Assembly (NCBI GenBank): GCA_944388935.1 | Contig: CALXKK010000005.1 | Span: 6,383-70,382 of the forward strand | From: an uncultured Clostridia bacterium | GTDB taxonomy: Bacteria; Bacillota; Clostridia; TANB77; CAG-508 | Length of the DNA: 64,000 nucleotides | Direction: 5' to 3' | Shown here: one piece after another, positions 1 through 57,225 of the stretch | Layout: the number at the start of each line of letters is the position of its first letter | Numbering within the stretch: the first letter of the stretch is position 1 | Position numbers and translations under genes: made by a program | The notes under the pieces: model-generated | What the model saw: only the letters and a program-made list of their open reading frames with translations | Databases searched by the model: none | Told to the model about the DNA's origin: nothing

Positions 1-311
1 AGGCAAGACCTTATTTAATAAAAAGCGAAGATGAAAAATCTTTATTTGTAAATATAAATGGAAAAAGATTAACTAGACAAGGATTTTGGAAAATAGTTAA
101 ATTTTATAAAGAACAAGCTCATATAGAAAAAGATATTACTCCACATGTATTAAGACATTCTTTTGCAACACATTTATTACAAAATGGAGCAGATTTAAAG
201 GCAATACAAGTAATGTTAGGACATTCAGATATTTCTTCAACTCAAGTATATATGCAATTCCAAGATGAAGGTTTAAAGAATATATACAAAAAAGCACATC
301 CAAGAGCATAA
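1..311 (+). CDS. xerD: Tyrosine site-specific recombinase XerD, C-terminal part (5' end lies outside the window; reading frame starts at nt 3)
   Basis: The translation ...GKRLTRQGFWKIVKFYKEQAHIEKDITPHVLRHSFATHLLQNGADLKAIQVMLGHSDISSTQVYMQ... carries the RHSFAT and LGH..IS.TQ.Y catalytic motifs of Xer-type tyrosine recombinases. Stop codon TAA at 309-311. Confidence 0.85.
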   Translation, partial: ARPYLIKSEDEKSLFVNINGKRLTRQGFWKIVKFYKEQAHIEKDITPHVLRHSFATHLLQNGADLKAIQVMLGHSDISSTQVYMQFQDEGLKNIYKKAHPRA

Positions 312-326
312 TAGTAATACAAATAG

Positions 327-370
327 CCACCAATATAGATGTAAATCTAATATTTGGTGGTATTTTTTTT
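327..370 (+). terminator. Rho-independent terminator after xerD (hairpin followed by a T-run)
   Basis: Hairpin CCACCAATAT ... ATATTTGGTGG, then TATTTTTTTTT. Confidence 0.6.
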
Positions 371-415
371 TAGATTATGTTATACTTATAAACATGAAGA
401 AATGTGGAGGTTAAT

Positions 416-2749
416 ATGAGTGATCTTACAAGTGATGAAAAAATAAATATACAAAAAAATTTGGAATACATAGGATTAGATTTAGAAAATATACCAGAAT
501 TTATAAGAAATTATAGACCGCTTGAATTTAGACCAATAAGAGGATTTAACGAGAATAAAAGCAGAATATATAAATATTTAAATATTAAAGATATACAAAT
601 CTATATAACTCCTAGAAATAAGATGGATTCACTTTTAAAAAAATATGAAGAATCAAACCAGTTATATGATTATTTAAAATTAGAATCAGATGATGACATA
701 GTAAGACACAGTATATTCTTAAAAATGGTAGATAAAGTGAATTTAGCAGAAGTAGAGAGAATATCCGAAGAACAAGATGTTTTAAATGAAAAGATACCAT
801 TTCAAGTAAAATATAGCGAAAATTATCTTTGGCAAATTTATTATTCAGATATAACGAAACAATATTTTATGATGGTAACATTAGAAAATGAAGAATATGA
901 GGCGTTTTTTTATTTGTTAAAAAAACAAATAGAGGCATATAAGCAAAATAAGGATATATATATTTATGTTCCAGTATGTAATACAGAATATTCTGGAGAA
1001 TTATTAACAAGAAATGAGATTACAGATACAGAAAATTATTTATGGTTATTTACAAAAGACTGGCCATTCATTTATGAAGTATACGATAAAGATGGTATTA
1101 TGAGTTTATACATTATAGGAAATACGATTTGTTATGAGAAGATAATTAGCAATTACAGAATTGTAATAAGAACAGAGGAAGAAGCGGTTAAATTTTTTAA
1201 ATTAATAAAAGCACTATTCATATTACAAACCGAAACTAATGGAAAATATACTTTTAAACCTCTAATAAAACAGGACGGAAGTTTAGAGTTTTTATATGAT
1301 GGAAATATAATAGAATACGATAATCTTACTAGTTTTATAAAAACAGAATTTTATAAAATTGATAATCAAATTAATGATATTGTTGAAAATTTAAATAAAT
1401 GTCAAAAACAAAAACAAGAACTATCAATAGAAGAGAAAAATAAAGTAAAAGAATTTCAAAACAAAGAAAAGGCGATATCAGTTTATTTGGATTGCAAACG
1501 TAGTTTCTTTGGAAAAATAAAATTCTTTATGCAAAATAAGAAAAAGCTAAAAGGAAAAGCAAAGGAAGTTCTAAATAAGGAGAGTAAAGAAGAAGAGAAA
1601 GACGAAGTAAAAGAAATATTAAAAGAAAATGATGGAATAGATAGAACAAAAGAATTCTTGACAATAGAGGATTTAGTTTTGCTAGTTAAAGCATTCGAGA
1701 ATCAAGATAAAAAACTAAAAAATGATGAGATGGATGTACGAGCATTAGAAAATAAAATAAAGGTTTTAGATAGCAAGATAAAGAATGCAGATATATATTT
1801 AAAAGAAATAGATGAACATAATAAGAGTATTTTTGATTTCTGGAAATTTACAAATAAAGATAATAATTTAATTTTATCAGAAGGTGAAGCAGACGAAGAA
1901 GTAGTTGTTACTAAACTAGAAAAAACATTTGACTATTTAGAAGATTTAGAAGATGTTGGTAAAGATATGGATAAAATTATCAGAAAGAAAATATCTAAGA
2001 AAGAATGTGACAGTATATTTTTAGCAACTACCGAAATTTTAAAATTTATAAATGAAGTAAAAAATAATAGTGAACCAGATGATTCAAAAATGAAATTATT
2101 AGAAGAAGAATTAAATTCTATAAAAGAAAAAACAACAATAGTAAGTTCTTTATTTCCAAAAGAGGAATATGATATATTTGGAGGTCTATCAGAGGATAAA
2201 ACAAAAATTAGAGTATTGGCTGGAAGAAAGCATCGTGAGATTGAAAAAAATATGTACAGAGTAATTGATGTAAACAAAAATACATCTTTGGAAAGATTTG
2301 TAGAAAAACTAAGGAAAATTGTAGAAGACATAGAAAAGGTTTTAGACCAAATAAAAGCTCCAATGAATTTATCTTTATACATTGCAGAGAGTAATATTAA
2401 TAAAAATAATTTTGAATTATATCATATAAATCCAGAACAGGCTATAAATGATATAGAAAGTAGTAATGAAAAAATTTGTAGAATAAATATAAAAAAAGGT
2501 ATGCCACTTATATTTTTAACCAATACAATTTATTACGATAATTATAATAGAACTCTTCCAGAGGGAATGGAATTAAGTGATTTAGTTTTAATTGATAATT
2601 CTAAATTTGATTTTATAAAAAGACAAGATACATTTTTTAGAATAAACAAAAAAATTGAAAGATTTGATTATAAGAATTGTGAAATACATATAAAAGAATT
2701 TGATTTAAAGCTTAAAAAACCAAAAAAGGAGGAAAAAAGTGATAAATAG
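416..2749 (+). CDS. Large hypothetical coiled-coil protein (~777 aa) with an N-terminal internally duplicated globular region and a K/E-rich central coiled coil
   Basis: Long ORF. GGAGG RBS lies 5 nt before ATG 416 (the ORF track starts at GTG 404). There is no Walker motif and no TM segment. The motif ENYLWQIYYSD recurs as ENYLWLFTKDW, indicating internal duplication. The middle of the protein is heptad-like and K/E-rich. The 3' end overlaps the deoB start. Confidence 0.6.
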   Translation: MSDLTSDEKINIQKNLEYIGLDLENIPEFIRNYRPLEFRPIRGFNENKSRIYKYLNIKDIQIYITPRNKMDSLLKKYEESNQLYDYLKLESDDDIVRHSIFLKMVDKVNLAEVERISEEQDVLNEKIPFQVKYSENYLWQIYYSDITKQYFMMVTLENEEYEAFFYLLKKQIEAYKQNKDIYIYVPVCNTEYSGELLTRNEITDTENYLWLFTKDWPFIYEVYDKDGIMSLYIIGNTICYEKIISNYRIVIRTEEEAVKFFKLIKALFILQTETNGKYTFKPLIKQDGSLEFLYDGNIIEYDNLTSFIKTEFYKIDNQINDIVENLNKCQKQKQELSIEEKNKVKEFQNKEKAISVYLDCKRSFFGKIKFFMQNKKKLKGKAKEVLNKESKEEEKDEVKEILKENDGIDRTKEFLTIEDLVLLVKAFENQDKKLKNDEMDVRALENKIKVLDSKIKNADIYLKEIDEHNKSIFDFWKFTNKDNNLILSEGEADEEVVVTKLEKTFDYLEDLEDVGKDMDKIIRKKISKKECDSIFLATTEILKFINEVKNNSEPDDSKMKLLEEELNSIKEKTTIVSSLFPKEEYDIFGGLSEDKTKIRVLAGRKHREIEKNMYRVIDVNKNTSLERFVEKLRKIVEDIEKVLDQIKAPMNLSLYIAESNINKNNFELYHINPEQAINDIESSNEKICRINIKKGMPLIFLTNTIYYDNYNRTLPEGMELSDLVLIDNSKFDFIKRQDTFFRINKKIERFDYKNCEIHIKEFDLKLKKPKKEEKSDK

Positions 2750-3939: not shown

Positions 3940-5874
3940 ATGGAAAATTCAGAAGAAAAACAAACTAAACAAGAAGATAATAAAACAACAAAGAGTACTC
4001 AAGAATGGACTCAAGAACCAAAAAAAGAAAATAGAAAGAAAACAAGTAAGAAAAAAATAATAATTATTATAGCGATTATTATAGTATTATTAGCTGGAAT
4101 AGCAGCGGGTGTTTGGTTTTATTTATCTAATAAAGAAGATAATGAAACTCTAGATTGGGGAAAAGTATATTTAGAAGTATTAAATGATACAGATAAATTA
4201 GAAGATATGAACAATCAAAAAATACAAATTTGTGATTTGGAAAAAGACTCTATACCAGAATTAACAATATATGGAAATAAAGATGATAATGAATATATAG
4301 CCAATATATATAAAATAAATGACAATAACGAAGTGGATACAATAAGAGTATCTTTGGATAATGAATTTGATTTGAATTTAATTTATGATTCAAATAAAGA
4401 TGATTATGTTTGGTATGCAGTTTCTGAGCAAGAAGACAATACTACGAAAATATATAATTTAAATTTTGAAAATAGTCAATATACACCAGAAGAAGTAACT
4501 CTAAATTTAGGAGTAGATAGCATAAAAGTGGATAATGATTATAGCGAAAAAATAGATTTTGACAAAAATTCTTCTGAAGATGCAAAAAAAGAAATATTAG
4601 ACCAAGCTATAGATAAATATGTTCCTGTTGAAAATATGATAACAGACGAAGTAAGAGAGAAAGTTGAGGATATAAAATTATTAAAGAACATTAAAAAAAT
4701 AGATCCAAGTAAGGATATTGTATATACAGTAGAGGAATATAAATCAACAACGAATGGAGATAATTATAAATATCCAGCTATCAATATTGATGCAGATAAT
4801 GTAAAACAAATCAATTCCGAAATAGAAAATTTATATGGATTTAAAGCATCAGATTATAGTACTAATGGCTTTATTCTATCACCAGAAACAGAAGAAAGCG
4901 GATATAAGTATTATATAAATGGACATATATTATCTTTAGTAGTATATAATGGTGGAAATGATAGTGTATGGTCTACAGCATATAATATTAATTTACAAGA
5001 TTATTCAACAATTAACAGTGATGTGCTTTTGCAAGAAAAAGGATTAAACAAAGATGAAGTTATTGCAAAAGCTTATGAATCCGCAGAAAAGAAAATGCAA
5101 GAAGTAATAGAAAATGATAAAACAGCTGTAGGTAGCTATTGGGATACAATGTATCCAGTATCAGAAACTTCAACCTGGGAAGCTGAAATGAAAGATAGTA
5201 TAGATAAATTAGCAAATGTTTATTTAAATGAAAATGGAGATTTTTGTATTCTTGCTGACTTAGAACATGCTGGTGGACAATATTCTTGTAACAAAAACAT
5301 TATAATAAATGTTAGCGATAATTATTCTGTAGAAGAGTTATTATTAGATGTATGGAATGGTGAGGAGCAAAATTTATCTCCTATACCACAACAAACAACA
5401 GAAACAACAGAGACAACTGGAACGACAGAAGCCACAAGCCAAAGTTCTAGTACAAATAGTAATATTAAAGGGATAATAGGTCTAGACCAGATGAAAACAT
5501 TTACATATGAACCAAGCTATAATGTACCATTGGAAGAAGGAACATATACTGGACCAATGGGAACATTGAAAATAACAAATTCAACAGGAAATACATTTGA
5601 TTTTGAATTTGCTTGTGAAAAACAAACATCTGCAGGATATGGACCAAATTTAGGCAGTATGCAAGGAACAGCAAAAGCAATAACAGGCAATGGGAATTTT
5701 GTATTTTCAGAAGAAAAAACAGTAGGTTCATATTCATATAAATATAATGTATTTTTCTATACATATGGAAATAGCATTACAGTTTATGATGAATGCTACG
5801 ATAATATTACAGGAAAAACAGATAGTCCATATTGTGGAAATGGAGTAATGTTCTCAGGAACATATACAAAATAA
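3940..5874 (+). CDS. Hypothetical membrane-anchored extracytoplasmic protein (644 aa) with a Thr-rich linker and a Cys-containing C-terminal module
   Basis: Strong RBS AAAGGGGAGG. Charged N-terminus, then a TM helix (IIIIIAIIIVLLAGIAAGVWFYL). Linker TTETTETTGTTEATSQSSSTNSN. C-terminal ~150 aa contain Cys residues (CEKQ...ECYDN...PYCGNG). The gene is followed by a long inverted-repeat terminator. Confidence 0.6.
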   Translation: MENSEEKQTKQEDNKTTKSTQEWTQEPKKENRKKTSKKKIIIIIAIIIVLLAGIAAGVWFYLSNKEDNETLDWGKVYLEVLNDTDKLEDMNNQKIQICDLEKDSIPELTIYGNKDDNEYIANIYKINDNNEVDTIRVSLDNEFDLNLIYDSNKDDYVWYAVSEQEDNTTKIYNLNFENSQYTPEEVTLNLGVDSIKVDNDYSEKIDFDKNSSEDAKKEILDQAIDKYVPVENMITDEVREKVEDIKLLKNIKKIDPSKDIVYTVEEYKSTTNGDNYKYPAINIDADNVKQINSEIENLYGFKASDYSTNGFILSPETEESGYKYYINGHILSLVVYNGGNDSVWSTAYNINLQDYSTINSDVLLQEKGLNKDEVIAKAYESAEKKMQEVIENDKTAVGSYWDTMYPVSETSTWEAEMKDSIDKLANVYLNENGDFCILADLEHAGGQYSCNKNIIINVSDNYSVEELLLDVWNGEEQNLSPIPQQTTETTETTGTTEATSQSSSTNSNIKGIIGLDQMKTFTYEPSYNVPLEEGTYTGPMGTLKITNSTGNTFDFEFACEKQTSAGYGPNLGSMQGTAKAITGNGNFVFSEEKTVGSYSYKYNVFFYTYGNSITVYDECYDNITGKTDSPYCGNGVMFSGTYTK

Positions 5875-5932
5875 TGAAAAGTACTTGCCTTTTAATAATA
5901 AATTTGGTATTATTAAAAAGCAAGTGTTATAT

Positions 5933-6015
5933 GCCGATGTGGCGGAATTGGCAGACGCACCAGACTCAAAATCTGGCGGGAAACCATGTGGGTTCGAGTC
6001 CCACCATCGGTACCA
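5933..6015 (+). tRNA. tRNA-Leu, anticodon CAA, class II with long variable arm and encoded CCA
   Basis: Acceptor stem GCCGATG/CATCGGT. Anticodon stem CCAGA/TCTGG with loop CTCAAAA. T-arm GTGGG-TTCGAGT-CCCAC. Long variable arm and 3' CCA present. Confidence 0.85.
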
Positions 6016-6053
6016 ATGAAAGCATGACGAAGTCATGCTATTTTTTTGTATAT

Positions 6054-6097
6054 AAAACAAAACCACGCTACTTGAAATGAGCGTGGTTTTGTTGTTT
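6054..6097. terminator. Bidirectional intrinsic terminator between tRNA-Leu (+) and the minus-strand small gene
   Basis: AAAACCACGC-loop-GCGTGGTTTT, flanked by A-run and T-run on both sides. Confidence 0.65.
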
Positions 6098-6098
6098 T

Positions 6099-6125
6099 AA
6101 GAAGAGATTAGACTCCCTTCGGTAT
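6099..6125 (-). repeat. Conserved motif copy 1 (plus strand AAGAAGAGATTAGACTCCCTTCGGTA; an SD-like small hairpin on the minus-strand transcript)
   Basis: One of three related about 25-nt motifs (6099, 6577, 7089). Each is placed at the 3' or 5' end of the GC-rich minus-strand genes. Confidence 0.5.
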
Positions 6126-6145
6126 GGAACTACAAGAATACAAAG

Positions 6146-6406
6146 TTAGTAGCCAAGCCCCCAAAGCCGCTTATACATTGTGTATGGATCCACGCCACAG
6201 TAAATTGCATAAATATTAACTGTGGTGACGTTTCCACTATCATAATGTACATACATGTTCAAAAAATCTAACAGGAGTGACCACCGCCATTCTGGAGGCC
6301 AATATGGTAAATAATCCATGAGCAAATTGGTAATGTCCTTTGGCAGAAGTGCACAAATGGCTCTAACAACTTCGAAAAAATTGCGTTCCTTCTTGGATTG
6401 AGACAT
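6146..6406 (-). CDS. Hypothetical small Trp-rich protein (86 aa) in the GC-rich island
   Basis: GGAAGGAG RBS 7 nt upstream of ATG (rc of 6404-6406). Own consensus promoter TTGACA-17-TATAAT (minus strand, about 6444-6472). Codon third positions are GC-rich, unlike the host. No recognisable family. Confidence 0.45.
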   Translation of the reverse strand: MSQSKKERNFFEVVRAICALLPKDITNLLMDYLPYWPPEWRWSLLLDFLNMYVHYDSGNVTTVNIYAIYCGVDPYTMYKRLWGLGY

Positions 6407-6443
6407 GTTTCTCCTTCCATATATGCTGTGCTTAAACAAAGAT

Positions 6444-6472
6444 ATTATACAACCATAATTAAGTTATGTCAA
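6444..6472 (-). promoter_or_regulatory. Consensus sigma-A-type promoter (TTGACA-17 nt-TATAAT) for the 86-aa island gene
   Basis: rc of 6467-6472 is TTGACA and rc of 6444-6449 is TATAAT, with exactly 17 nt between them. Confidence 0.55.
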
Positions 6473-6533
6473 CGGATAGTGCTTGGAGTTATGGATTAAT
6501 ATTGAAGATAAAAAAATAAGATTAAAAAAATCG

Positions 6534-6569
6534 AAACAACCACACCCTTTTTATGGGGTGTGGTTGTTT
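6534..6569. terminator. Hairpin terminator between the two island genes, related in sequence to the 6054-6097 terminator
   Basis: AAACAACCACACCC-TTTTTAT-GGGGTGTGGTTGTTT. Shares the core AAAC(A)AACCAC...GTGGTTGTT with the tRNA-side terminator. Confidence 0.55.
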
Positions 6570-6576
6570 CGTAACA

Positions 6577-6602
6577 AGAAGAGATGAGTCTCCTTTCTAC
6601 TG
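6577..6602 (-). repeat. Conserved motif copy 2 (plus strand AAGAAGAGATGAGTCTCCTTTCTACT)
   Basis: Immediately 3' of the 119-aa gene stop. Forms an AGGAGA-cuca-UCUCUU hairpin in the minus-sense transcript. Confidence 0.5.
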
Positions 6603-6956
6603 ACAGAGATTGGCAACAATCTTCTGGTTCATGAAAGATGCCTTCCTCAGTTCTGCCGACGCCTTGATGGCATCTGCCATGTCTTTTTTGAAGTTGGCAC
6701 GAATGCTGTTGGTTGGCCTTCTGCACAGAAGTGAATAGATGCTAACCGCAACATCATTTGTGCTGTCCTGTGGGACAAACTTGTTGATGAAAAGAGACAA
6801 AGCGAAGAAGTCATCATCTCTCTGATTGACTTCAGGAGCTGAATAGAACTTGAGGTTGCTTTGGCATGGTGCGAATTGGAACTTGTTTTCCTCTGCCATT
6901 TTCATAATAGCATCGAGTACGTCCCCGACTTTGCGAGGATCTGCGGAACGAGACAT
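6597..6956 (-). CDS. Hypothetical protein (119 aa) in the GC-rich island
   Basis: RBS GGAGGAAGAG before ATG. GC-rich third positions. Likely promoter TTACAA-16-TATAAT at about 7135-7162 (minus strand). No recognisable family. Confidence 0.45.
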   Translation of the reverse strand: MSRSADPRKVGDVLDAIMKMAEENKFQFAPCQSNLKFYSAPEVNQRDDDFFALSLFINKFVPQDSTNDVAVSIYSLLCRRPTNSIRANFKKDMADAIKASAELRKASFMNQKIVANLCQ

Positions 6957-7088
6957 AACTCTTCCTCCATTTCAAGTTTGAAACGATTGTTTTACCGTAC
7001 CCTGGCAATAGCCAAAGGCATCTTTGCCAGTAAAGGTGAAGCGACTTGCTGGTTGTTAGATTATGTTGTAGCTAGTTGTTTACTCACT

Positions 7089-7109
7089 AAGAAGCTCTCC
7101 TTTCGGTAT
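7089..7109 (-). repeat. Conserved motif copy 3 (plus strand AAGAAGCTCTCCTTTCGGTAT), at the 5' end of the 119-aa gene transcript
   Basis: Shares CTCC(C/T)TTCGGTAT with copy 1 and the GTTGTTT...AAGAAG context with copies 1 and 2. Confidence 0.45.
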
Positions 7110-7266
7110 TTGTACTGTTGATTGAATCACTTATTATTATAACATATTATGTATAATTTGTAAATTTTAGCACAATAAAATTATACAAAAACAATAAATA
7201 ATTATTGACAAACGATAACAAAAGAAATAAAATATCTTCATAAAATATTTATGGAGGTATTTTATT

Positions 7267-8712
7267 ATGCAAAAAATAAATATATTTTTAGGGGCAATAT
7301 TATTAAGTATATGGAGTGTAGTATTATTTTTTGGTAAACAAATAGGATTGTCAATGTTATTATTTGTAATACCTATAACTTATTATATATTGCTTATATT
7401 AGAAAGAACGAATAAAGTAAAAAATGAAAAAGCCAAATTATTGATAGTACCAATAATTATACTTTCTGGAACATATTTAATATTTAATAATAGCTTTTTT
7501 AATGTACTTAATTTATTAGTAATTCCAATTTTATTAATTATTATGATATTAAATTTAATTAATACTAAATTAATTCCGAGAACTTTAGTAGAAAGAATTT
7601 TGGATATAGTTATAGAACCTTTTGCCTTTATAGGCGAAACAATGCAAGAATTTAAAAATACTATTGTAGAAAAATTAAATATAAAACATGAAGATGGCGA
7701 AAATAAAAAGGTAAAGAATATTTTTAAAGCAATATGCATTACATTACCACTAGTTATAATAATAATTACTATCCTAGCATCAGCAGATTCAATTTTTAGT
7801 AGTATGATTTCTAATATATTCAGTTCTATTTTTAGATTATTAGGAAAATTAAATTTATCTGGAATTGTTATAAGAATTATTGTAATAATATGTGTATTTA
7901 TATATTTATCAAGTTTCTTTTACAATATAATAAGAAATGAAGATGATTTCGAAGAAGAAGAAAAAGAAACTAAAAAAATAGAAGATACTACCTTAAAAAT
8001 GATTTTAACAGCTTTAAATATTGTTTATTTTGTATTTTGCATTATTCAGATTAATTCTTTATTTATGCAAAAAGCAATTATAAATTATGCAGATTATGCA
8101 AGACAAGGATTTTTCCAATTAATGATAGTATCTATAATAAATTTAATAATGATATTGGTTTCAAAAAAATATAGTGATAAAAAGAATAAATATATCAATT
8201 TTATGTGTATAATAATGGTAATATTTACATTTATCATAATACTATCTTCTGCAGTTAGAATGCATTTTTATGAGCAAGCATATGGATATACTTTTTTAAG
8301 ATTATTAGTATATTGTGTACTATTTACAGAGGTGCTTTTATTAATACCAACAATGCTATATATATTTAACAAACAAAAAAACTTATTAAGAAATTATTTT
8401 ATCATTATGATTGTAGTATATGCTGGAATGAATTTAATTAATTTTGATGCCATAATTGCTAACAGAAATGTGGAAAGATATATAGAAATAGGAAAAATAG
8501 ATTTAGATTATTTGGAGCAAGAAACAGGAACAGATGCAATAGATGAGATTATACAAATTTTAAAAATAGAAAATGTAGATGGACAAACAAAACAAGAAGT
8601 TGTAAACTATATTTATCAAGTTTATGCAGATTTGTCTAACGAGGATATGGACTTTAGGGATATGAATATATCTAAAATATTAGCTAAAAAAGCTATAGAG
8701 GGGATTAAATAA
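7267..8712 (+). CDS. Polytopic integral membrane protein (481 aa), unknown function (DUF4173-like)
   Basis: At least 10 hydrophobic segments. TTGACA-17-TAAAAT promoter at about 7205-7233. Translationally coupled to the next gene (ATAATG overlap). Confidence 0.6.
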   Translation: MQKINIFLGAILLSIWSVVLFFGKQIGLSMLLFVIPITYYILLILERTNKVKNEKAKLLIVPIIILSGTYLIFNNSFFNVLNLLVIPILLIIMILNLINTKLIPRTLVERILDIVIEPFAFIGETMQEFKNTIVEKLNIKHEDGENKKVKNIFKAICITLPLVIIIITILASADSIFSSMISNIFSSIFRLLGKLNLSGIVIRIIVIICVFIYLSSFFYNIIRNEDDFEEEEKETKKIEDTTLKMILTALNIVYFVFCIIQINSLFMQKAIINYADYARQGFFQLMIVSIINLIMILVSKKYSDKKNKYINFMCIIMVIFTFIIILSSAVRMHFYEQAYGYTFLRLLVYCVLFTEVLLLIPTMLYIFNKQKNLLRNYFIIMIVVYAGMNLINFDAIIANRNVERYIEIGKIDLDYLEQETGTDAIDEIIQILKIENVDGQTKQEVVNYIYQVYADLSNEDMDFRDMNISKILAKKAIEGIK

Positions 8713-44100: not shown

Positions 44101-44902
44101 TTTCTGTAAAACGTGTTGAAATAAAAAATCCTATTATACAAAATAATATAGAAAGTATGCCTGTCAAATTAAATCCAATTTTAGGAATTAGTATAAATAT
44201 TGAGCCAATTACAAATCCTAAAATAGAATAATAGGTTTGAGAATGATATTTATTAAGTAAAAATTGTATTAATTTCATACATAAAAATCCACCAATTATT
44301 AAACCAATGCCCATTGGTAATAATATCCTAAAATTCACAATTGAAACTGCATACAAATAGGTTTCATAAACACCCAGCAACATTAAAATAATTGTGCTAC
44401 TAACTCCAGGTATAACAATACCTGCACTCATTAAAAATCCGGCTAGCAATAAAAATTCAAAACTAAAATTATCTCCATAATAAATACCAATATTATTTGA
44501 TACATGATTTTCTAATAATATTAATAGTATTGCAATAATAAAAGATATTATAAAATAAAACAAATAGTTTAATTTAAATTTTTCTTTTGAATTGCAAATC
44601 TTAAAAATTGAAGGTATGCATCCTAGAATTAATCCTATAAATGTAAAAGATGTAATTTCTGGATATCTTTCGAAGAAAAAGAGAATAATATTGCTAAAGA
44701 GAATTATTCCAGTAAGTCCACCTAAAATAAAAGGTGTAAGAAATTTTAAATTTTTCTTCCAATCCTTAAAAAAATTTAATATACTATTTAATAGAGTTTC
44801 GTAAATACCAAAGATAACACATAAAACTCCACTACTTATTCCAGGGATTATCGCACCTGCACCAATTAATATACCTTTAATATAATCAGAAAGAAATTTC
44901 AT
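44096..44902 (-). CDS. DUF368 family membrane protein (undecaprenyl-phosphate translocase family)
   Basis: MKFLSDYIKGILIGAGAIIPGISSGVLCVIFGIYE plus a second IPGVSSTIILMLLGVYE repeat, characteristic of DUF368. Confidence 0.75.
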   Translation of the reverse strand: MKFLSDYIKGILIGAGAIIPGISSGVLCVIFGIYETLLNSILNFFKDWKKNLKFLTPFILGGLTGIILFSNIILFFFERYPEITSFTFIGLILGCIPSIFKICNSKEKFKLNYLFYFIISFIIAILLILLENHVSNNIGIYYGDNFSFEFLLLAGFLMSAGIVIPGVSSTIILMLLGVYETYLYAVSIVNFRILLPMGIGLIIGGFLCMKLIQFLLNKYHSQTYYSILGFVIGSIFILIPKIGFNLTGILSILFCIIGFFISTRFTEK

Positions 44903-45986: not shown

Positions 45987-46403
45987 ATGGAATTTGAAAG
46001 AGGAATAAATTACTACGAATTAGATGGAATGAATGTTGTACATCATTCAAATTATATTAGATATATGGAAGAGGCAAGAATTTATTTATTAGATAAAATA
46101 GGTTTACCATATAAAAAAATAGATGATAATGGAATAATGATTCCTGTTCTAGAAGTACATTATAAATATAAATATCCTGCAAGGTTTGGAGATACAATAT
46201 CTATAAAAGTAGAGATAGCAGAATTTGATGGAATAAAAATGAAAATTAAATATGAGATTAAGAATAAGGAAAATGGAAAATTATTGGGAACAGGAGAAAC
46301 GAAGCATTGTTTCACAAACTCTAACATGAGGCCAATATCTTTAAAAAAAGTTAATAAAGAATTTTATGATGTATTCGAAAAAGCTACGAATAAAAAGGAC
46401 TAG
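45987..46403 (+). CDS. Acyl-CoA thioesterase, hotdog fold (YbgC/4HBT family)
   Basis: Conserved VVHHSNYIRYMEEAR region. 138 aa. Confidence 0.8.
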   Translation: MEFERGINYYELDGMNVVHHSNYIRYMEEARIYLLDKIGLPYKKIDDNGIMIPVLEVHYKYKYPARFGDTISIKVEIAEFDGIKMKIKYEIKNKENGKLLGTGETKHCFTNSNMRPISLKKVNKEFYDVFEKATNKKD

Positions 46404-46404
46404 T

Positions 46405-47110
46405 CTAGTCCTTTTTTAGTTTTGATTCTAATTTTTTTATTGCTTTGGTTTCAATTCTTGACACATACGATCTTGATATTCCAAGGTCTTTTGCAATTTC
46501 ATTTTGAGTTTCTGGTTTATGTCCGTTTAAGCCAAATCTTCTTATTATAATTTCTTTTTCACGTTCTTTTAATATTTTGTCAATGTTTGCATAAAGTTTT
46601 TCTTTTTTTAAACCTAAATCTACTTCATCTTCGATGCTTCTAATATCTGCTTCTAAAACTTCTTGAAGAGTTACAACATTATCATCTTTATCTTTTCCGA
46701 ATAGGATCATTTAGTTTTACTTCAGATTGTAATTTTTTTGAAGAACGTAAAAACATCAATATTTCATTATCTATACATTTGGCTATATATGTAGAAAGTT
46801 TAACACCTTTGTCAGGATTAAAACTATTGATACCTTTTATAAGGCCAATAGTACCAATAGAAATTAAATCATCTTGTTCAATATTTGATGTGGAATATTT
46901 TTTTGCGACATGAGCAACTAGTCGCAGGTTTTTTTCTATTAAAATATTTCTGGCTTCTTTATCACCAGACTTAAATTTATTTAAATAATATGATTCGTCT
47001 GAAGGTGAAAGAGGTTCTGGAAATAAACTAGAACTTTGAATATATCCAACGACAAAAACTGCTGAACCTAAAAAAGAAATAAATCCAGCCAACGAAATAG
47101 TAGAGAACAT
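46405..47110 (-). pseudogene. sigK: RNA polymerase sporulation sigma factor pro-sigma-K, interrupted by a +1 frameshift at about 46697-46700
   Basis: The N-terminal ORF (46688-47110) encodes the pro-sequence plus regions 2-3 and ends ...VKLNDPIRKR*. The C-terminal ORF (46405-46710, different frame) continues ILFGKDKDDNVVTLQEVLE...GISRSYVSRIE. Deleting one C in ATTCGGAAAAG restores DPIGKDKDDN, matching the B. subtilis SigK sequence DPIGQDKEGNE. Confidence 0.75.
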
Positions 47111-47399
47111 ACATATACCTCCCTAAATAACACTCTATGAAAAGTATATGTAAAAAGGGGCTTTTCTGTGCCTGGACCATTGAAATTTAAATATTTACAC
47201 ATAATTACTATAATTTTATCATAAAATTTAAATAATTACAAATAATAAAGTTATATAAACGAATTTAAATAAATAGCATATAATTAAGTATGAACGAGAT
47301 AAACTTAAAAAAACACAAAAAATGCACAAAATTGATATTGAAATAAAATTAATTATGTGTTAATATACTTATAAATTAAATAAACGACAAACAAAAACT

Positions 47400-47600
47400 T
47401 CCCTGCATAGTGCGTGTAGACTGGAATTTTAGAACCAACAAATTTTAAAAGGGAGTCCGCCTTTAGGTGTGGCGTGCAAGCTTACACTTTAATTAGTAGT
47501 AAGAAGCCCAGGAGCATTTAACAAGACACCCACCTACGCGAGTAGGCTCTTAAAATTTCTAAACATCTTACGGCTAAGGCGGGGTAAGTTTTTTTATATG
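47400..47600 (+). ncRNA. Candidate structured non-coding RNA (GC-rich, about 45-50% GC against 28% background), family unassigned
   Basis: Local GC spike. GNRA hairpin CCTAC-GCGA-GTAGG. Long-range complement CCGCCTT (47463) / AAGGCGG (47582). Ends ...GGCGGGGTAAGTTTTTTT. No ORF with an RBS. Lies directly upstream of prmC. Confidence 0.3.
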
Positions 47601-50984: not shown

Positions 50985-52025
50985 TTGAAAAAAGATAATT
51001 TAGATGATAGAAAGAAAAAAGTTTTGCAAGCAATTGTAGAAGAATATATAAATACTGCAGAACCAGTTAGCTCAGGGGCTATATCAAAAGGACATGGACT
51101 TGATTATAGTAGTGCTACAATAAGAAATGATATGGCACAACTAGAAAATATAGGATTTTTGGATAAGCCACATACATCATCTGGTAGAGTACCTTCTGCA
51201 AAAGGTTATCGATATTATGTTCATGAACTTTTAAAAGAAGATAATTTAAGTTTGGAAGAAATAAAATATATCCAAAAGAAATTAAAGGTAAAAGTTAATG
51301 AGATAGAAGATTTAACCAAAGCTGCAACAACAACACTTTCTGAAATAACTCATTATACAACAGTAGCTGTTGGACCAAAGTCAGACAAGCAAATAATAGA
51401 AGAAATAAAATTTGTTTCATTAGGTCAAAGGATGCTAATGGTAGTAATAGTAACAGATACAGGTCTGGTTAAAGAAACAATTATAAAATTTGACGAAGAT
51501 ATAACAGATAGCCAAGTAGATACTTTAAATAATTTGTTTAATACAAGACTAAAAGGAAAACCGTTATCAAAAATAGATAAGCCAATGGCAGAGTATATTT
51601 TCTCAGAAGTAAATTATAGTGTTGGGATAATGAAGGCAATAATTGAACAAATAAATAAGATAGTTGATGAAGAAGATAACAATATAATATTGGAAGGTGC
51701 CAAAAATTCATTTGACTTACCAGAATTTAAAAGTATGAAGGTTGCCAAAAATTTTGTTAATTTGCTAGATGCCAAGGACGAAATGCTACAAATATTTAAT
51801 TCTGGAGATGCAGAAGATATAAATGTTTATATTGGTGACGATGACGATAATAGTAATTTAAAAGATTTTAGTATTATAACCTTTAAACATACTATGGGAG
51901 ATAAGGATTTAGGAACAATAGGAATTATAGGACCAAAAAGAATGGATTATGCAAAGGTAATAGCAGTTATGAAATACATAAGTAAAAAAATAAATGAAGA
52001 TAATAATAAGAAAGAGGGTATGTAA
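50985..52025 (+). CDS. hrcA: Heat-inducible transcription repressor HrcA
   Basis: N-terminal winged HTH VLQAIVEEYINTAEPVSSGAI. 346 aa. TTG start with AGAGGTG RBS. Confidence 0.9.
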   Translation: MKKDNLDDRKKKVLQAIVEEYINTAEPVSSGAISKGHGLDYSSATIRNDMAQLENIGFLDKPHTSSGRVPSAKGYRYYVHELLKEDNLSLEEIKYIQKKLKVKVNEIEDLTKAATTTLSEITHYTTVAVGPKSDKQIIEEIKFVSLGQRMLMVVIVTDTGLVKETIIKFDEDITDSQVDTLNNLFNTRLKGKPLSKIDKPMAEYIFSEVNYSVGIMKAIIEQINKIVDEEDNNIILEGAKNSFDLPEFKSMKVAKNFVNLLDAKDEMLQIFNSGDAEDINVYIGDDDDNSNLKDFSIITFKHTMGDKDLGTIGIIGPKRMDYAKVIAVMKYISKKINEDNNKKEGM

Positions 52026-52026
52026 A

Positions 52027-52542
52027 TTGGCAGAAAAAAAAGAACCAAAGAAGGAAACAAAAAAGGAACCAGAAGTAATCAAGTCTGATGAAATGGTAAA
52101 AAAAGAAGAATTAGTAAAGAAACAACAAGATTATGATGAGCTAATGGATAGATATAAGAGAGTTTTAGCAGAATTTGAAAACTACAAAAAGAGAAGCTCA
52201 AAAGAAAGAGACCAATTATATAACTCAATTTTGGGAGATATAATGATTGGAATTTTACCAGTATTGGATAACTTAGAAAAAGCTGTTGCAACCGAGACAG
52301 AGGATAAAAATTATAAACAAGGTGTTGAGCTAGTTTATAAACAATTAAAAGATTTGCTAAAATCAAACGGTGTTGAAGAAATAGAAGCAGTAGGAAAGAC
52401 TTTTGATCCAGAGTTACACGAAGCAGTAAGTTCTGTTGTAGATGAAAACTTAGGAGAAAAAGAAATAAAAGAAGACTATAGAAAAGGATACAAAATTGGC
52501 AATAAAGTAATACGTCATTCTATGGTCGTAGTAGCAAACTAA
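52027..52542 (+). CDS. grpE: Nucleotide exchange factor GrpE
   Basis: RY.R..AEFENYKKR and C-terminal GY.....VIRHSMV motifs. TTG 52027 after a GAGGG RBS (the ORF track starts further upstream, inside hrcA). Confidence 0.85.
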   Translation: MAEKKEPKKETKKEPEVIKSDEMVKKEELVKKQQDYDELMDRYKRVLAEFENYKKRSSKERDQLYNSILGDIMIGILPVLDNLEKAVATETEDKNYKQGVELVYKQLKDLLKSNGVEEIEAVGKTFDPELHEAVSSVVDENLGEKEIKEDYRKGYKIGNKVIRHSMVVVAN

Positions 52543-52684
52543 GACAGCTGTTTGAGCAAAGCGAATTACAGATGTCTTATGCAACCGAATGCAGTGAGGT
52601 TGTAAACCGCTGTATACAAATGACAAATAAGTTAAAAATATATAGAAAGTTATTTATTTTAAAATTTATATAAATATTTTTTAG

Positions 52685-54574
<1,890 letters not shown>

Positions 54575-54629
54575 AGTTTAGTGTTGGAGGGTAAAACCTC
54601 CAACATTTAAACGCTAATTGGAGGATATA

Positions 54630-55784
54630 ATGGCAGAAAAAAGAGATTATTATGAAGTTTTAGGAGTTAATAAAAATGCAACAGATGATGAACTAAAAAA
54701 AGCCTATAGAAAATTAGCCAAAAAATATCATCCTGATGCAAATCCAAATAATAGAAAAGAAGCAGAAGAAAAATTTAAAGAATTAAATGAAGCATACGAA
54801 ACTCTTTCTGATCCACAAAAAAGAAAAATGTATGATCAATTTGGCTTTAATGGTCCACAAGGATTCGGAGGCCAAGGTGCAGGTCAAGGAGGATATTATT
54901 CTTACAGTACTAATGGATTTGATGGATTTGGTAATTTTGGAGATTTTGGCGATATATTTAGTTCATTCTTTTCTGGATTTGGTGGTTCTTCAGGCAGAAG
55001 TAATAGGAATGGACCTAAAAGAGGTAGAGATTTAAGACATGATATAGAGATTACTTTTGAAGAAGCATATTCAGGCATTAAGAAAGAATTCTTTATAAAT
55101 AGAAATGAAAAATGTACAACTTGTAATGGAACAGGTGCAAAACCAGGAACAAGTCCAATAACATGTCCTAATTGCCATGGAACAGGTCAAGTTACACAAG
55201 TTCAAAATACAATTTTAGGACAAATGCAAACTACTAGAACTTGTTCTGAATGTCATGGAACTGGTCAAATTATAAAAGAACCATGTTCAACATGTAGAGG
55301 AAAAGGAACTGTAAGAAAACAAGCCAAAGTTACAATAAATATTCCAGCAGGAATAGACGATAACCAAACTCTAATCTTAAAGAAAGAAGGAGAGCCAGGT
55401 GAAAGAGGCGGAGAAAACGGAGATATTTATGTAACAGTACATCTAAAGAGACACAGTATCTTTACAAGGGATGGAAATAATGTGTTATGCAATATTCCTA
55501 TCACAATGACACAGGCAACACTTGGTGCAGAATTAGAAATCCCAATGGTAGATGGCGAAAAAGTTAAATATAAAATACCAGAAGGAACACAAACAGGAAC
55601 AAGATTTAATATACGTAATAAAGGATTTAAATCTTTAAACGGAAATTGGCAAGGAGATTACATCTTTACAGTTAATGTACAAACTCCAAAGAAATTAACA
55701 AAAGAACAAAGAGACTTATTTACACAATTAGCAAAAACTATGAACGAGCAACCTCCAGTAAAGAAAAGAGGTTTATTTGGATAG
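54630..55784 (+). CDS. dnaJ: Molecular chaperone DnaJ (Hsp40), type I with Gly/Phe-rich region and four CxxCxGxG repeats
   Basis: J-domain HPD motif (KYHPDAN). Zinc motifs [24 protein letters not shown] and CSTCRGKG. Confidence 0.95.
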
Positions 55785-55817
55785 TGAACACGAGGGACGG
55801 ACCTTAAAAGTTCAAAT
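55785..55817 (+). repeat. Copy B of the conserved 24-nt element GGGACGGACCTTAAAAGTTCAAAT, beginning 1 nt after the dnaJ stop codon
   Basis: Exact 24-nt identity with 17562-17585. Local stem TGAAC/GTTCA. Confidence 0.7.
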
Positions 55818-55955
55818 TTTATGTTTACTCTTTGGATTTTTAAGGTTCCTAATGTTCAAAACAGTCAGATGAATACATAAATCATTTGGCTGTTTTTGTT
55901 TTTAAAACTATAGCATTATATATATTTGTGTTAATGAATGAAGGAGAATGATAAA

Positions 55956-56510
55956 ATGATATATATAGTTAGACATGGACAAACGGATTGGAATGTGATA
56001 GGAAGAAACCAAGGAAGAACTGATATTGAGTTAAATGAAACCGGTATTAAACAAGCTGAAGAAACAGCAAAAAAATTAAATGGAAAAAAATTTGATTTTG
56101 TTTTTTCAAGTCCTTTAAAGCGTGCCTATAAAACTGCTCAAATAATTTGTAATAATGATAATATAATTATAGATGAAAGATTGATTGAAAGATGCAATGG
56201 CGATTTAGAAGGTAGATTGAAATCAGAATATAATGGATTGGTAAATTTTGCAGATCCTAATGAAAATAGATATGGCATTGAGCCTTTACCAATTTTTAGA
56301 AGAAGAATAACAGATTTTTTTGCCGATATATTAAAAAAATATCCTGGAAAAGATATCCTTATTGTTACACATGCAGGGATAAGTATTTATGCTAAATGCT
56401 ATTTTGAAGGAGAGCCAAGAGATGGTAATTATAGTAAATACAAATTGAAAAATTGTGAGATTTTACAATATCCAAATGATTTAAAGCATAATAAATTTTA
56501 TGAAATATAA
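55956..56510 (+). CDS. Histidine phosphatase family protein (phosphoglycerate mutase-like)
   Basis: RHGQTDWN catalytic motif. GAAGGAGAA RBS before ATG 55956. Confidence 0.8.
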   Translation: MIYIVRHGQTDWNVIGRNQGRTDIELNETGIKQAEETAKKLNGKKFDFVFSSPLKRAYKTAQIICNNDNIIIDERLIERCNGDLEGRLKSEYNGLVNFADPNENRYGIEPLPIFRRRITDFFADILKKYPGKDILIVTHAGISIYAKCYFEGEPRDGNYSKYKLKNCEILQYPNDLKHNKFYEI

Positions 56511-56661
56511 TAATTAGTTTATCATTGAAAATTATGTAAATCGGAGATATAATATTTTTGTTTCTATTTGAAATGCTTTCTACTTATTTGTAGAAGGAAG
56601 GAGGCTTTTGAGCTTAGACAAGATATATAACATCGTCGGCAAAAAAACGAAAGGGACAGAG

Positions 56662-57045
56662 ATGTCAAAGAAGACAAGCAATAAAAGGTTCATTAAATTT
56701 TTCTTGATATTGGGCATTATAGTTTTTTTTATAGTTAATTGGAAGCTGTGTAATGGTAATTTTGAGCAATTTTGCTCTAATATGACAACAGCTTTAGGGG
56801 TATTAGGAGCTTGTACGTTATTGCTTATTTATGTAATTTGTCCATACTTGTGGATAATACTGATTCCTTTAGCTTTGTGCTTGTTTGATAAAAATGCACG
56901 CCCGTATGCTTTTGCACTTATTATAGTGGCAATGATTTTTGTGGCTTTTGGATTAATATTTTTTCCAAATAGCAAATCAGACGACGACAAGGAAGAAGAT
57001 GATGCTCAAAAGTCAAATGCTCAAGAATCTTCAAATGAGCAATAA
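56662..57045 (+). CDS. Hypothetical membrane protein with acidic C-terminal tail
   Basis: Three hydrophobic helices then a DDDKEEDDAQ tail. ATG 56662 after an AAAGGGA RBS. Followed by the terminator GGCGGAGGTTCTCACAT/ATGTGAGGACCTCCGTC. Confidence 0.5.
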   Translation: MSKKTSNKRFIKFFLILGIIVFFIVNWKLCNGNFEQFCSNMTTALGVLGACTLLLIYVICPYLWIILIPLALCLFDKNARPYAFALIIVAMIFVAFGLIFFPNSKSDDDKEEDDAQKSNAQESSNEQ

Positions 57046-57225
57046 AAGAATTAATGGCGGAGGTTCTCACATTATGTGAGGACCTCCGTCATTTTGCATA
57101 AAAAATATAGATTTTTCGGACCATCTCCAAATCCCTAAAAATCCATAAAATTTTATTTTACATATAAGTATAATGTATGATATAATGCAACGTAAGAAAG
57201 CATAAATTAATATAGGTGATAATAA

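Follow-up and report, generated by a model that had tools for sequence, protein, structure and literature searches.

The window analysed here is a stretch of 64,000 nucleotides from an uncultured Clostridia bacterium. On its minus strand, the ORF list and inspection of the sequence reveal two overlapping ORFs within 46405-47110, which together correspond to a sigK gene. The first (46688..47110, minus strand) encodes 140 aa, comprising the pro-sequence and region 2 and running into the beginning of the region 3.2 linker. Its C-terminus is ...KLNDPIRKR*, from the codons GAT CCT ATT CGG AAA AGA TAA, where the closing residues RKR are out of frame and the TAA stop occupies 46688-46690. The second (46405..46710, minus strand) encodes 101 aa in the +1 frame, with the rest of the linker and region 4. 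It starts MILFGKDKDDNVV... and its N-terminus is read as MILFGKDKDDN; MILF (codons 1-4) is an out-of-frame overlap, and the homologous part, GKDKDDN..., spans 46698 to 46405. The two ORFs overlap by 23 nt.

A single base separates both frames. When position 46699 is deleted, i.e., the C of a CGG codon at 46697..46699 (minus strand) that was located by repair and comparison with relatives, a single 234-aa ORF results, reading ...LNDPIGKDKDDNVVTLQ... and containing DPIGKDKDDN at the junction, the same as in all relatives. The original prediction of one inserted base, reversible by removing this C, thus holds. The inserted nucleotide would most simply be this C (G on the plus strand), and a T duplication in an ancestral ATC GGA would be an equally simple origin of the extra base. 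The trans-frame tryptic peptides of a +1 product would be LNDPIGK and DKDDNVVTLQEVLEADIR, and the zero-frame C-terminus would yield LNDPIR.

The repaired 234-aa protein reaches 302.1 bits with the NCBIfam SigK equivalog TIGR02846 (cut-off 298.65) and 307.8 bits with NF004471 (SigK; cut-off 252), whereas the SigE models give 225 and 217 bits, under their cut-offs. This agrees with the identification as pro-sigma-K made in the original prediction, and the motifs quoted there (FPEPLSPSDE, LRLVAHVAKKY, IGLIKGINSF and GISRSYVSRIE) are all found. The N-terminal fragment covers profile positions 9-133 of TIGR02846 (E 9e-57) and the C-terminal fragment positions 134-226 (E 5e-27). Since the fragments abut at 133/134, the break is a clean one, with no residues missing and none inserted. 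Over residues 10-128 there is an alignment to the fragment of B. subtilis pro-sigma-K in PDB 8vjl (chain 8vjl_B; E 1.6e-36). The pro-sequence, region 2 and the C-terminal region 4 expected of a SigK are all present, and an uninterrupted single frame is absent. Precomputed Pfam matches place Sigma70_r2 on the 140-aa ORF and Sigma70_r4 on the 101-aa ORF. As these domains flank the break, its earlier description as lying between regions 3 and 4 is approximately right; the PIG motif at the break matches the region 3.2 linker of sigma-70.

The original prediction also excluded an intervening element. A skin-like element can indeed be rejected, because the halves overlap with no insert between them and no SpoIVCA recombinase is present. 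In skin-split sigK genes (spoIVCB and spoIIIC; B. subtilis, C. difficile, C. tetani and others) there are likewise N- and C-terminal ORFs, and annotation pipelines would label both kinds of locus "split" or "pseudo". Unlike the skin-split genes, the copy in the window is one base away from an intact gene and contains nothing excisable to restore the frame.

The signals around the gene are preserved. A candidate sigma-E/sigma-K-type -10 element, CATATACT, lies at 47143..47150 (minus strand), 32 nt before the ATG, in line with the approximately 33 nt predicted originally. It was recognized by resemblance to the consensus, on which the assignment to sigma-E/sigma-K leans, and it sits inside a CATATACTTTTCATA block that is invariant in the upstream alignment of the window and the sister species, with one exception among the nine. 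It may function as a mother-cell (sigma-E/sigma-K) -10 element. A ribosome-binding site, GGGAGG, is found at 47118..47123 (minus strand), 7 nt before the ATG, and its GGAGG core is kept in all relatives in the same alignment. At the other end, the terminator search found a palindromic hairpin at 46392..46416 (no strand assigned), AAAAAGGACTAG-TCT-AGTCCTTTTT, with T runs on both sides (1 terminator-like site found, 0.3 expected). It is probably a bidirectional terminator common to sigK and the convergent thioesterase gene. The neighbours of sigK are the thioesterase gene, a DJ-1 gene, a 6S RNA and prmC. The 6S (SsrS) RNA gene (47397-47589, plus strand) is oriented divergently to sigK, with the sigK promoter region on one side and prmC on the other, and matches Rfam RF00013 with 98.3 bits (gathering score 46.4).

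Relatives were collected by scanning the GTDB representatives, in which each species has a single genome; at least 80 were returned, all of them MAGs of uncultured gut Clostridia. The species' own representative is missing among the 80 listed, presumably because a two-segment match ranks below full-length ones. A protein in the same 90% cluster carries the name "Clostridium sp. CAG:354". In the nine nearest species representatives among the matches listed, sigK is intact, with 85-96% aa identity, and the site reads ...CCN ATT/ATC GGN AAR GAT AAA GAT GAT AAT without interruption. One relative (L016) has CCT ATT GGA AAA GAT, which equals the window but for the extra C, and another (L014) has CCT ATC GGT. 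The closest relative among the matches listed shares 85.6% DNA identity. In the genomes compared, the frameshift is thus confined to one low-diversity species-level lineage.

The gene shows no decay on either side of the break. Against the nearest relative, dN/dS is 0.033 for the N-terminal part and 0.020 for the C-terminal part, values that cannot be told apart from those of comparisons among intact genes (0.014-0.116). The sigK of the window has just three private residues, each at a variable position. Taking approximately 540 non-synonymous sites, a branch dS of approximately 0.3-0.6 and three private changes, we estimate that neutral evolution of sigK may account for at most a few per cent of the branch. 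As no other decay is seen in the gene, in its signals or in the sporulation genes nearby, the lesion appears to be very young.

The other sporulation genes could be viewed over approximately 85 kb of the species, i.e., the window plus about 20 kb of flanks from sibling contigs. In this region, ytvI (254 bits, cut-off 198), spoIIM (130 bits, cut-off 100) and gpr (363 bits, cut-off 120) are full length, and cotJA (truncated by the end of the locus), cotJB, cotJC and a ytxC-like gene are called. Judged by these 85 kb, the lineage is therefore not one that became asporogenous long ago and whose sporulation genes are decaying.

The codon generated by the extra base is unusual for this organism. The original prediction called CGG rare, and it makes up 3 of the 18,911 codons in the window. 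It is absent from 11,715 codons of the closest relatives, accounts for 13 of 84,528 codons in the wider family and, this site aside, is not used in the approximately 30,000 codons of the clade's confident genes. The other two CGGs of the window belong to one 97-aa ORF (6146-6439, minus strand) without a family hit, which is uncalled by the public gene caller and in the sibling contigs. The surrounding region (5874-7267) is 1.4 kb long, has no called plus-strand gene, a higher GC content (0.31) and almost no GC skew, and holds tRNA-Leu(CAA) at 5933-6015 and two minus-strand ORFs without a family hit. It may be non-coding or recently acquired DNA.

Among the alternatives to a loss of function, the one that survives best is that hungry-codon +1 frameshifting partly rescues sigK, so that the allele would be leaky or even regulatory, not null. 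We consider this improbable. With AUU (Ile) in the P site, ribosomes would stall on CGG in the A site, move +1 and continue on GGA AAA GAU..., making full-length pro-sigma-K at a reduced level. A codon virtually unused in the clade would be a "hungry" A-site codon promoting such a slip, and +1 movement at AUU-CGG-A restores the conserved DPIGKDKDDN without any amino-acid change, in a locus where neither sigK with its signals nor the sporulation genes around it show further damage. There are also precedents: in E. coli rpoB, CCC-AGG-C allows approximately 5% suppression of a +1-nt insertion, and Ty1 reaches 20% shifting on CUU-AGG-C with no stimulator (PMC7022156). Several low-GC Firmicutes use CGG rarely, leave it unassigned or have reassigned it (PMC8629427). 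Known +1 sites have a rare Arg codon at the A site as their central element. Against this, no Shine-Dalgarno-like stimulator lies upstream of the site, the local RNA structure is not significant (z = -0.66), the frameshift is not conserved, being absent from the nine nearest species listed, and a random C inserted before GG yields CGG without any selection. In addition, tRNA-Ile(GAU) passing from AUU to UUC would, by general pairing rules, meet a first-position mismatch and re-pair poorly in the P site, whereas re-pairing at the known sites CUU-U and CCC-A is near-cognate. Examined as a programmed +1 site, the locus therefore has the rare A-site codon and fails in P-site re-pairing and cross-species conservation. 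Transcriptional slippage was rejected, since the longest A run at the site has only 4 nt.

Comparison with three +1-slip precedents (E. coli rpoB CCC-AGG-C, Ty1 CUU-AGG-C and prfB CUU-UGA-C) leads to a similar view. As in rpoB, for which Huseby et al. 2020 (PMC7022156) described intrinsic suppression of a +1-nt insertion, a one-base insertion in a gene of the transcription machinery is followed by a very rare Arg codon, and a +1 shift restores the wild-type product. Unlike the three precedents, sigK combines a poorly re-pairing AUU with the lack of a stimulator and of conservation across species. It is doubtful that ribosomes stall at an effectively unassigned CGG and slip +1 often enough to produce working pro-sigma-K, the frameshift being tolerated. 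If true, a whole natural population would be suppressing an indel in a developmental master regulator through a hungry codon. Late sporulation could then depend on the supply of a rare or absent tRNA-Arg, and such a case, rare in nature, would bear on the origin of programmed frameshifting and on codon reassignment in low-GC genomes. The original prediction regarded recoding as much less likely than the other options; it is still a minority option, although somewhat more plausible than claimed there, given that CGG is essentially unused.

A sequencing error was another of the options first listed, and the recurrence of the split makes it unlikely. In a public assembly look-up, the exact 140-aa and 101-aa products occur, between them, in eight assemblies (ERZ16268102, ERZ28615408, ERZ13617663, ERZ17292901, SRR30170013, ERZ28614992, ERZ13616086 and ERZ28614592), whose contig names follow at least 4 different naming schemes. 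Over sigK, the sibling contigs have 99.4-100% DNA identity with the window, and the window is 100% identical to the 95,085-bp ENA contig ERZ28614592 scaffold_422 from position 6436 onward. Divergence between samples of the lineage is 0-0.12%, so uniform a population that it gives no measure of selection on the downstream half within it. Nevertheless, one contig (L096) has 16 differences from the window in 13.9 kb, and two others (L001 and L005) have a common SNP at 44503. These SNPs elsewhere indicate that the sibling contigs are not copies of one record.

Intact alleles of this lineage were also sought. The exact repaired protein has no match among approximately 15 billion public proteins. 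No intact allele was found via the neighbouring thioesterase gene either, a look-up that is blind to the state of sigK and whose contigs were split or non-informative. In the JGI metagenome contigs, a scan for both versions of the site, frameshifted and repaired, gave 0 hits, which means that the species is absent from the JGI collection. Two long-read-style contigs found via ruvC (L093 and L094) were left out, as they do not extend to sigK in the range retrieved and contain many broken genes.

A systematic artefact, either a shared assembly error or one contaminating or reference sequence hiding an intact gene, would draw some support from the nature of these data, since the evidence consists of assembled contigs, all informative ones apparently short-read, several have low coverage (e.g., cov 1.4-2.0 in the contig names) and several assemblies come from the same two or three studies. 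However, the same base recurs in eight assemblies from different samples and under different naming schemes, the flanking DNA contains true polymorphism, and the insertion lies in a T-C-G context with no homopolymer run, whereas indel errors concentrate in such runs. We therefore judge an artefact of this kind very unlikely, and a sequencing error, one-off or systematic, is an unlikely cause of the extra base.

Three further proteins of the same 90% cluster (P0136-P0138, 87-90 aa) were considered as split alleles and rejected: two come from contigs with N gaps and one has a nonsense codon, and they are not evidence for a recurrent break point. In two sister-species scaffolds (L090 and L091), sigK is "split" solely by runs of N over the same linker region, showing that split-sigK calls in databases can be artefacts. 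In a single contig of the CAG:354-like sister species (L089; ERZ27242361 k141_161409), a nonsense change from AAA to TAA around position 60 (...AEV*LSDPIG) precedes the site of the window's frameshift by five codons. Either an error due to low coverage or a separate knock-out of sigK could explain it.

Differences between contigs were also noticed in other parts of the window. A contig of the same species (L099; ERZ13617352) is identical to the window from position 1378 on, and its positions 1-1375 hold phage tail genes (Phage_tail_2 and Phage_TAC_12) in place of window positions 1-1377. The 781-aa ORF at 404-2749, without Pfam hits, may have its C-terminal part in common with a phage tail (tape-measure-like) protein, or L099 may be chimeric. 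A contig from another sample (L092; ERZ24773357, BRZ_GR), compared with window positions 51444-57153, has 99.8% identity from ispH to ruvC and only 96.3% over hrcA-grpE-dnaK-dnaJ, and it lacks the two genes at 55938-57045, one of the histidine-phosphatase family and a 145-aa ORF. This pattern hints at recombination and at a variable gene content in the species or close to it.

The weakest alternative is a two-piece sigma factor, in which the sigma-2 fragment and a sigma-4 fragment initiated separately at the ATG at 46710 would join on the core RNA polymerase; it could appeal to the position of this ATG within the 23-nt overlap, a geometry that fits termination-reinitiation, to the complete Pfam domain in each half and to the lack of decay downstream, but no Shine-Dalgarno sequence precedes the internal ATG, the break severs the region 3.2 linker, a segment with an important role in initiation by one-piece sigmas, and no sister species listed has a split gene, so that we find it extremely unlikely. 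The same ATG exists out of frame in the relatives (AATGAT/AATGAC) and is thus not an adaptation. The natural split sigmas SigO-RsoA of B. subtilis and gp55/gp33 of phage T4 are the model for such an arrangement. In contrast to them, the downstream sigK half lacks the Shine-Dalgarno sequence expected of an independently and efficiently initiated gene, and the split is not conserved.

We suggest that the split sigK probably reflects a genuine loss-of-function mutation of very recent origin, by which a gut Firmicute has taken an early step towards losing sporulation. The insertion is present in all sampled members of the species and absent from its sister species, and no further decay accompanies it. 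It is likely to be fixed, or nearly so, in this lineage, whose uncultured members are low-GC gut Clostridia with "Clostridium sp. CAG:354" as a relative. The process would have started with the insertion of one nucleotide in the codons of the region 3.2 linker, after which ribosomes staying in frame would terminate three codons past the insertion. The resulting 140-aa product would keep the pro-sequence and sigma-2 (core binding and -10 recognition) without sigma-4 (-35 recognition), and without sigma-4 no functional sigma-K holoenzyme able to recognize its promoters would be formed. The final mother-cell stage would then fail, including coat and cortex maturation and mother-cell lysis, and the mutation would have spread through a clonal population or founded it. 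Both the loss of sigma-K activity and the sporulation phenotype are what we infer from this state of the gene. Among the earlier options, an asporogenous or late-sporulation-defective strain was the first, of which the late defect is best supported, but it concerns all sampled members of the species and not one strain.

Frameshifted sporulation genes recur in Firmicutes genomes (Galperin et al. 2012, PMC3533761; Galperin et al. 2022, bioRxiv 10.1101/2022.02.25.481979), and sporulation has been lost many times independently in gut Firmicutes (Browne et al. 2021, PMC8340488), so the event is of an ordinary kind, well documented in this lineage. As in those cases, a single lesion affects a core sporulation gene in an otherwise sporulation-equipped genome, within a gut-associated lineage of small, low-GC Clostridia. 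Unlike them, the lesion is found in eight metagenome assemblies, with no repaired allele seen, which makes it a population-level state and not a trait of a single sequenced strain or a suspected error of sequencing, and the organism is uncultured. There is a counterpoint: sigK is broken in every sampled member while the seven neighbouring sporulation genes seen are intact, and a knock-out amid intact genes also matches the pattern of a tolerated (bypassed) frameshift.

For annotation, the lesion should be taken as real and not be "corrected". If a recent loss is the right reading, the locus would offer a dated view of how a gut commensal begins to lose sporulation, with one master regulator hit and the remaining programme still in place. 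It would then be useful for predicting spore formation and the mode of transmission from metagenomes, in which counts of gene presence and absence would wrongly score this species as a spore-former.
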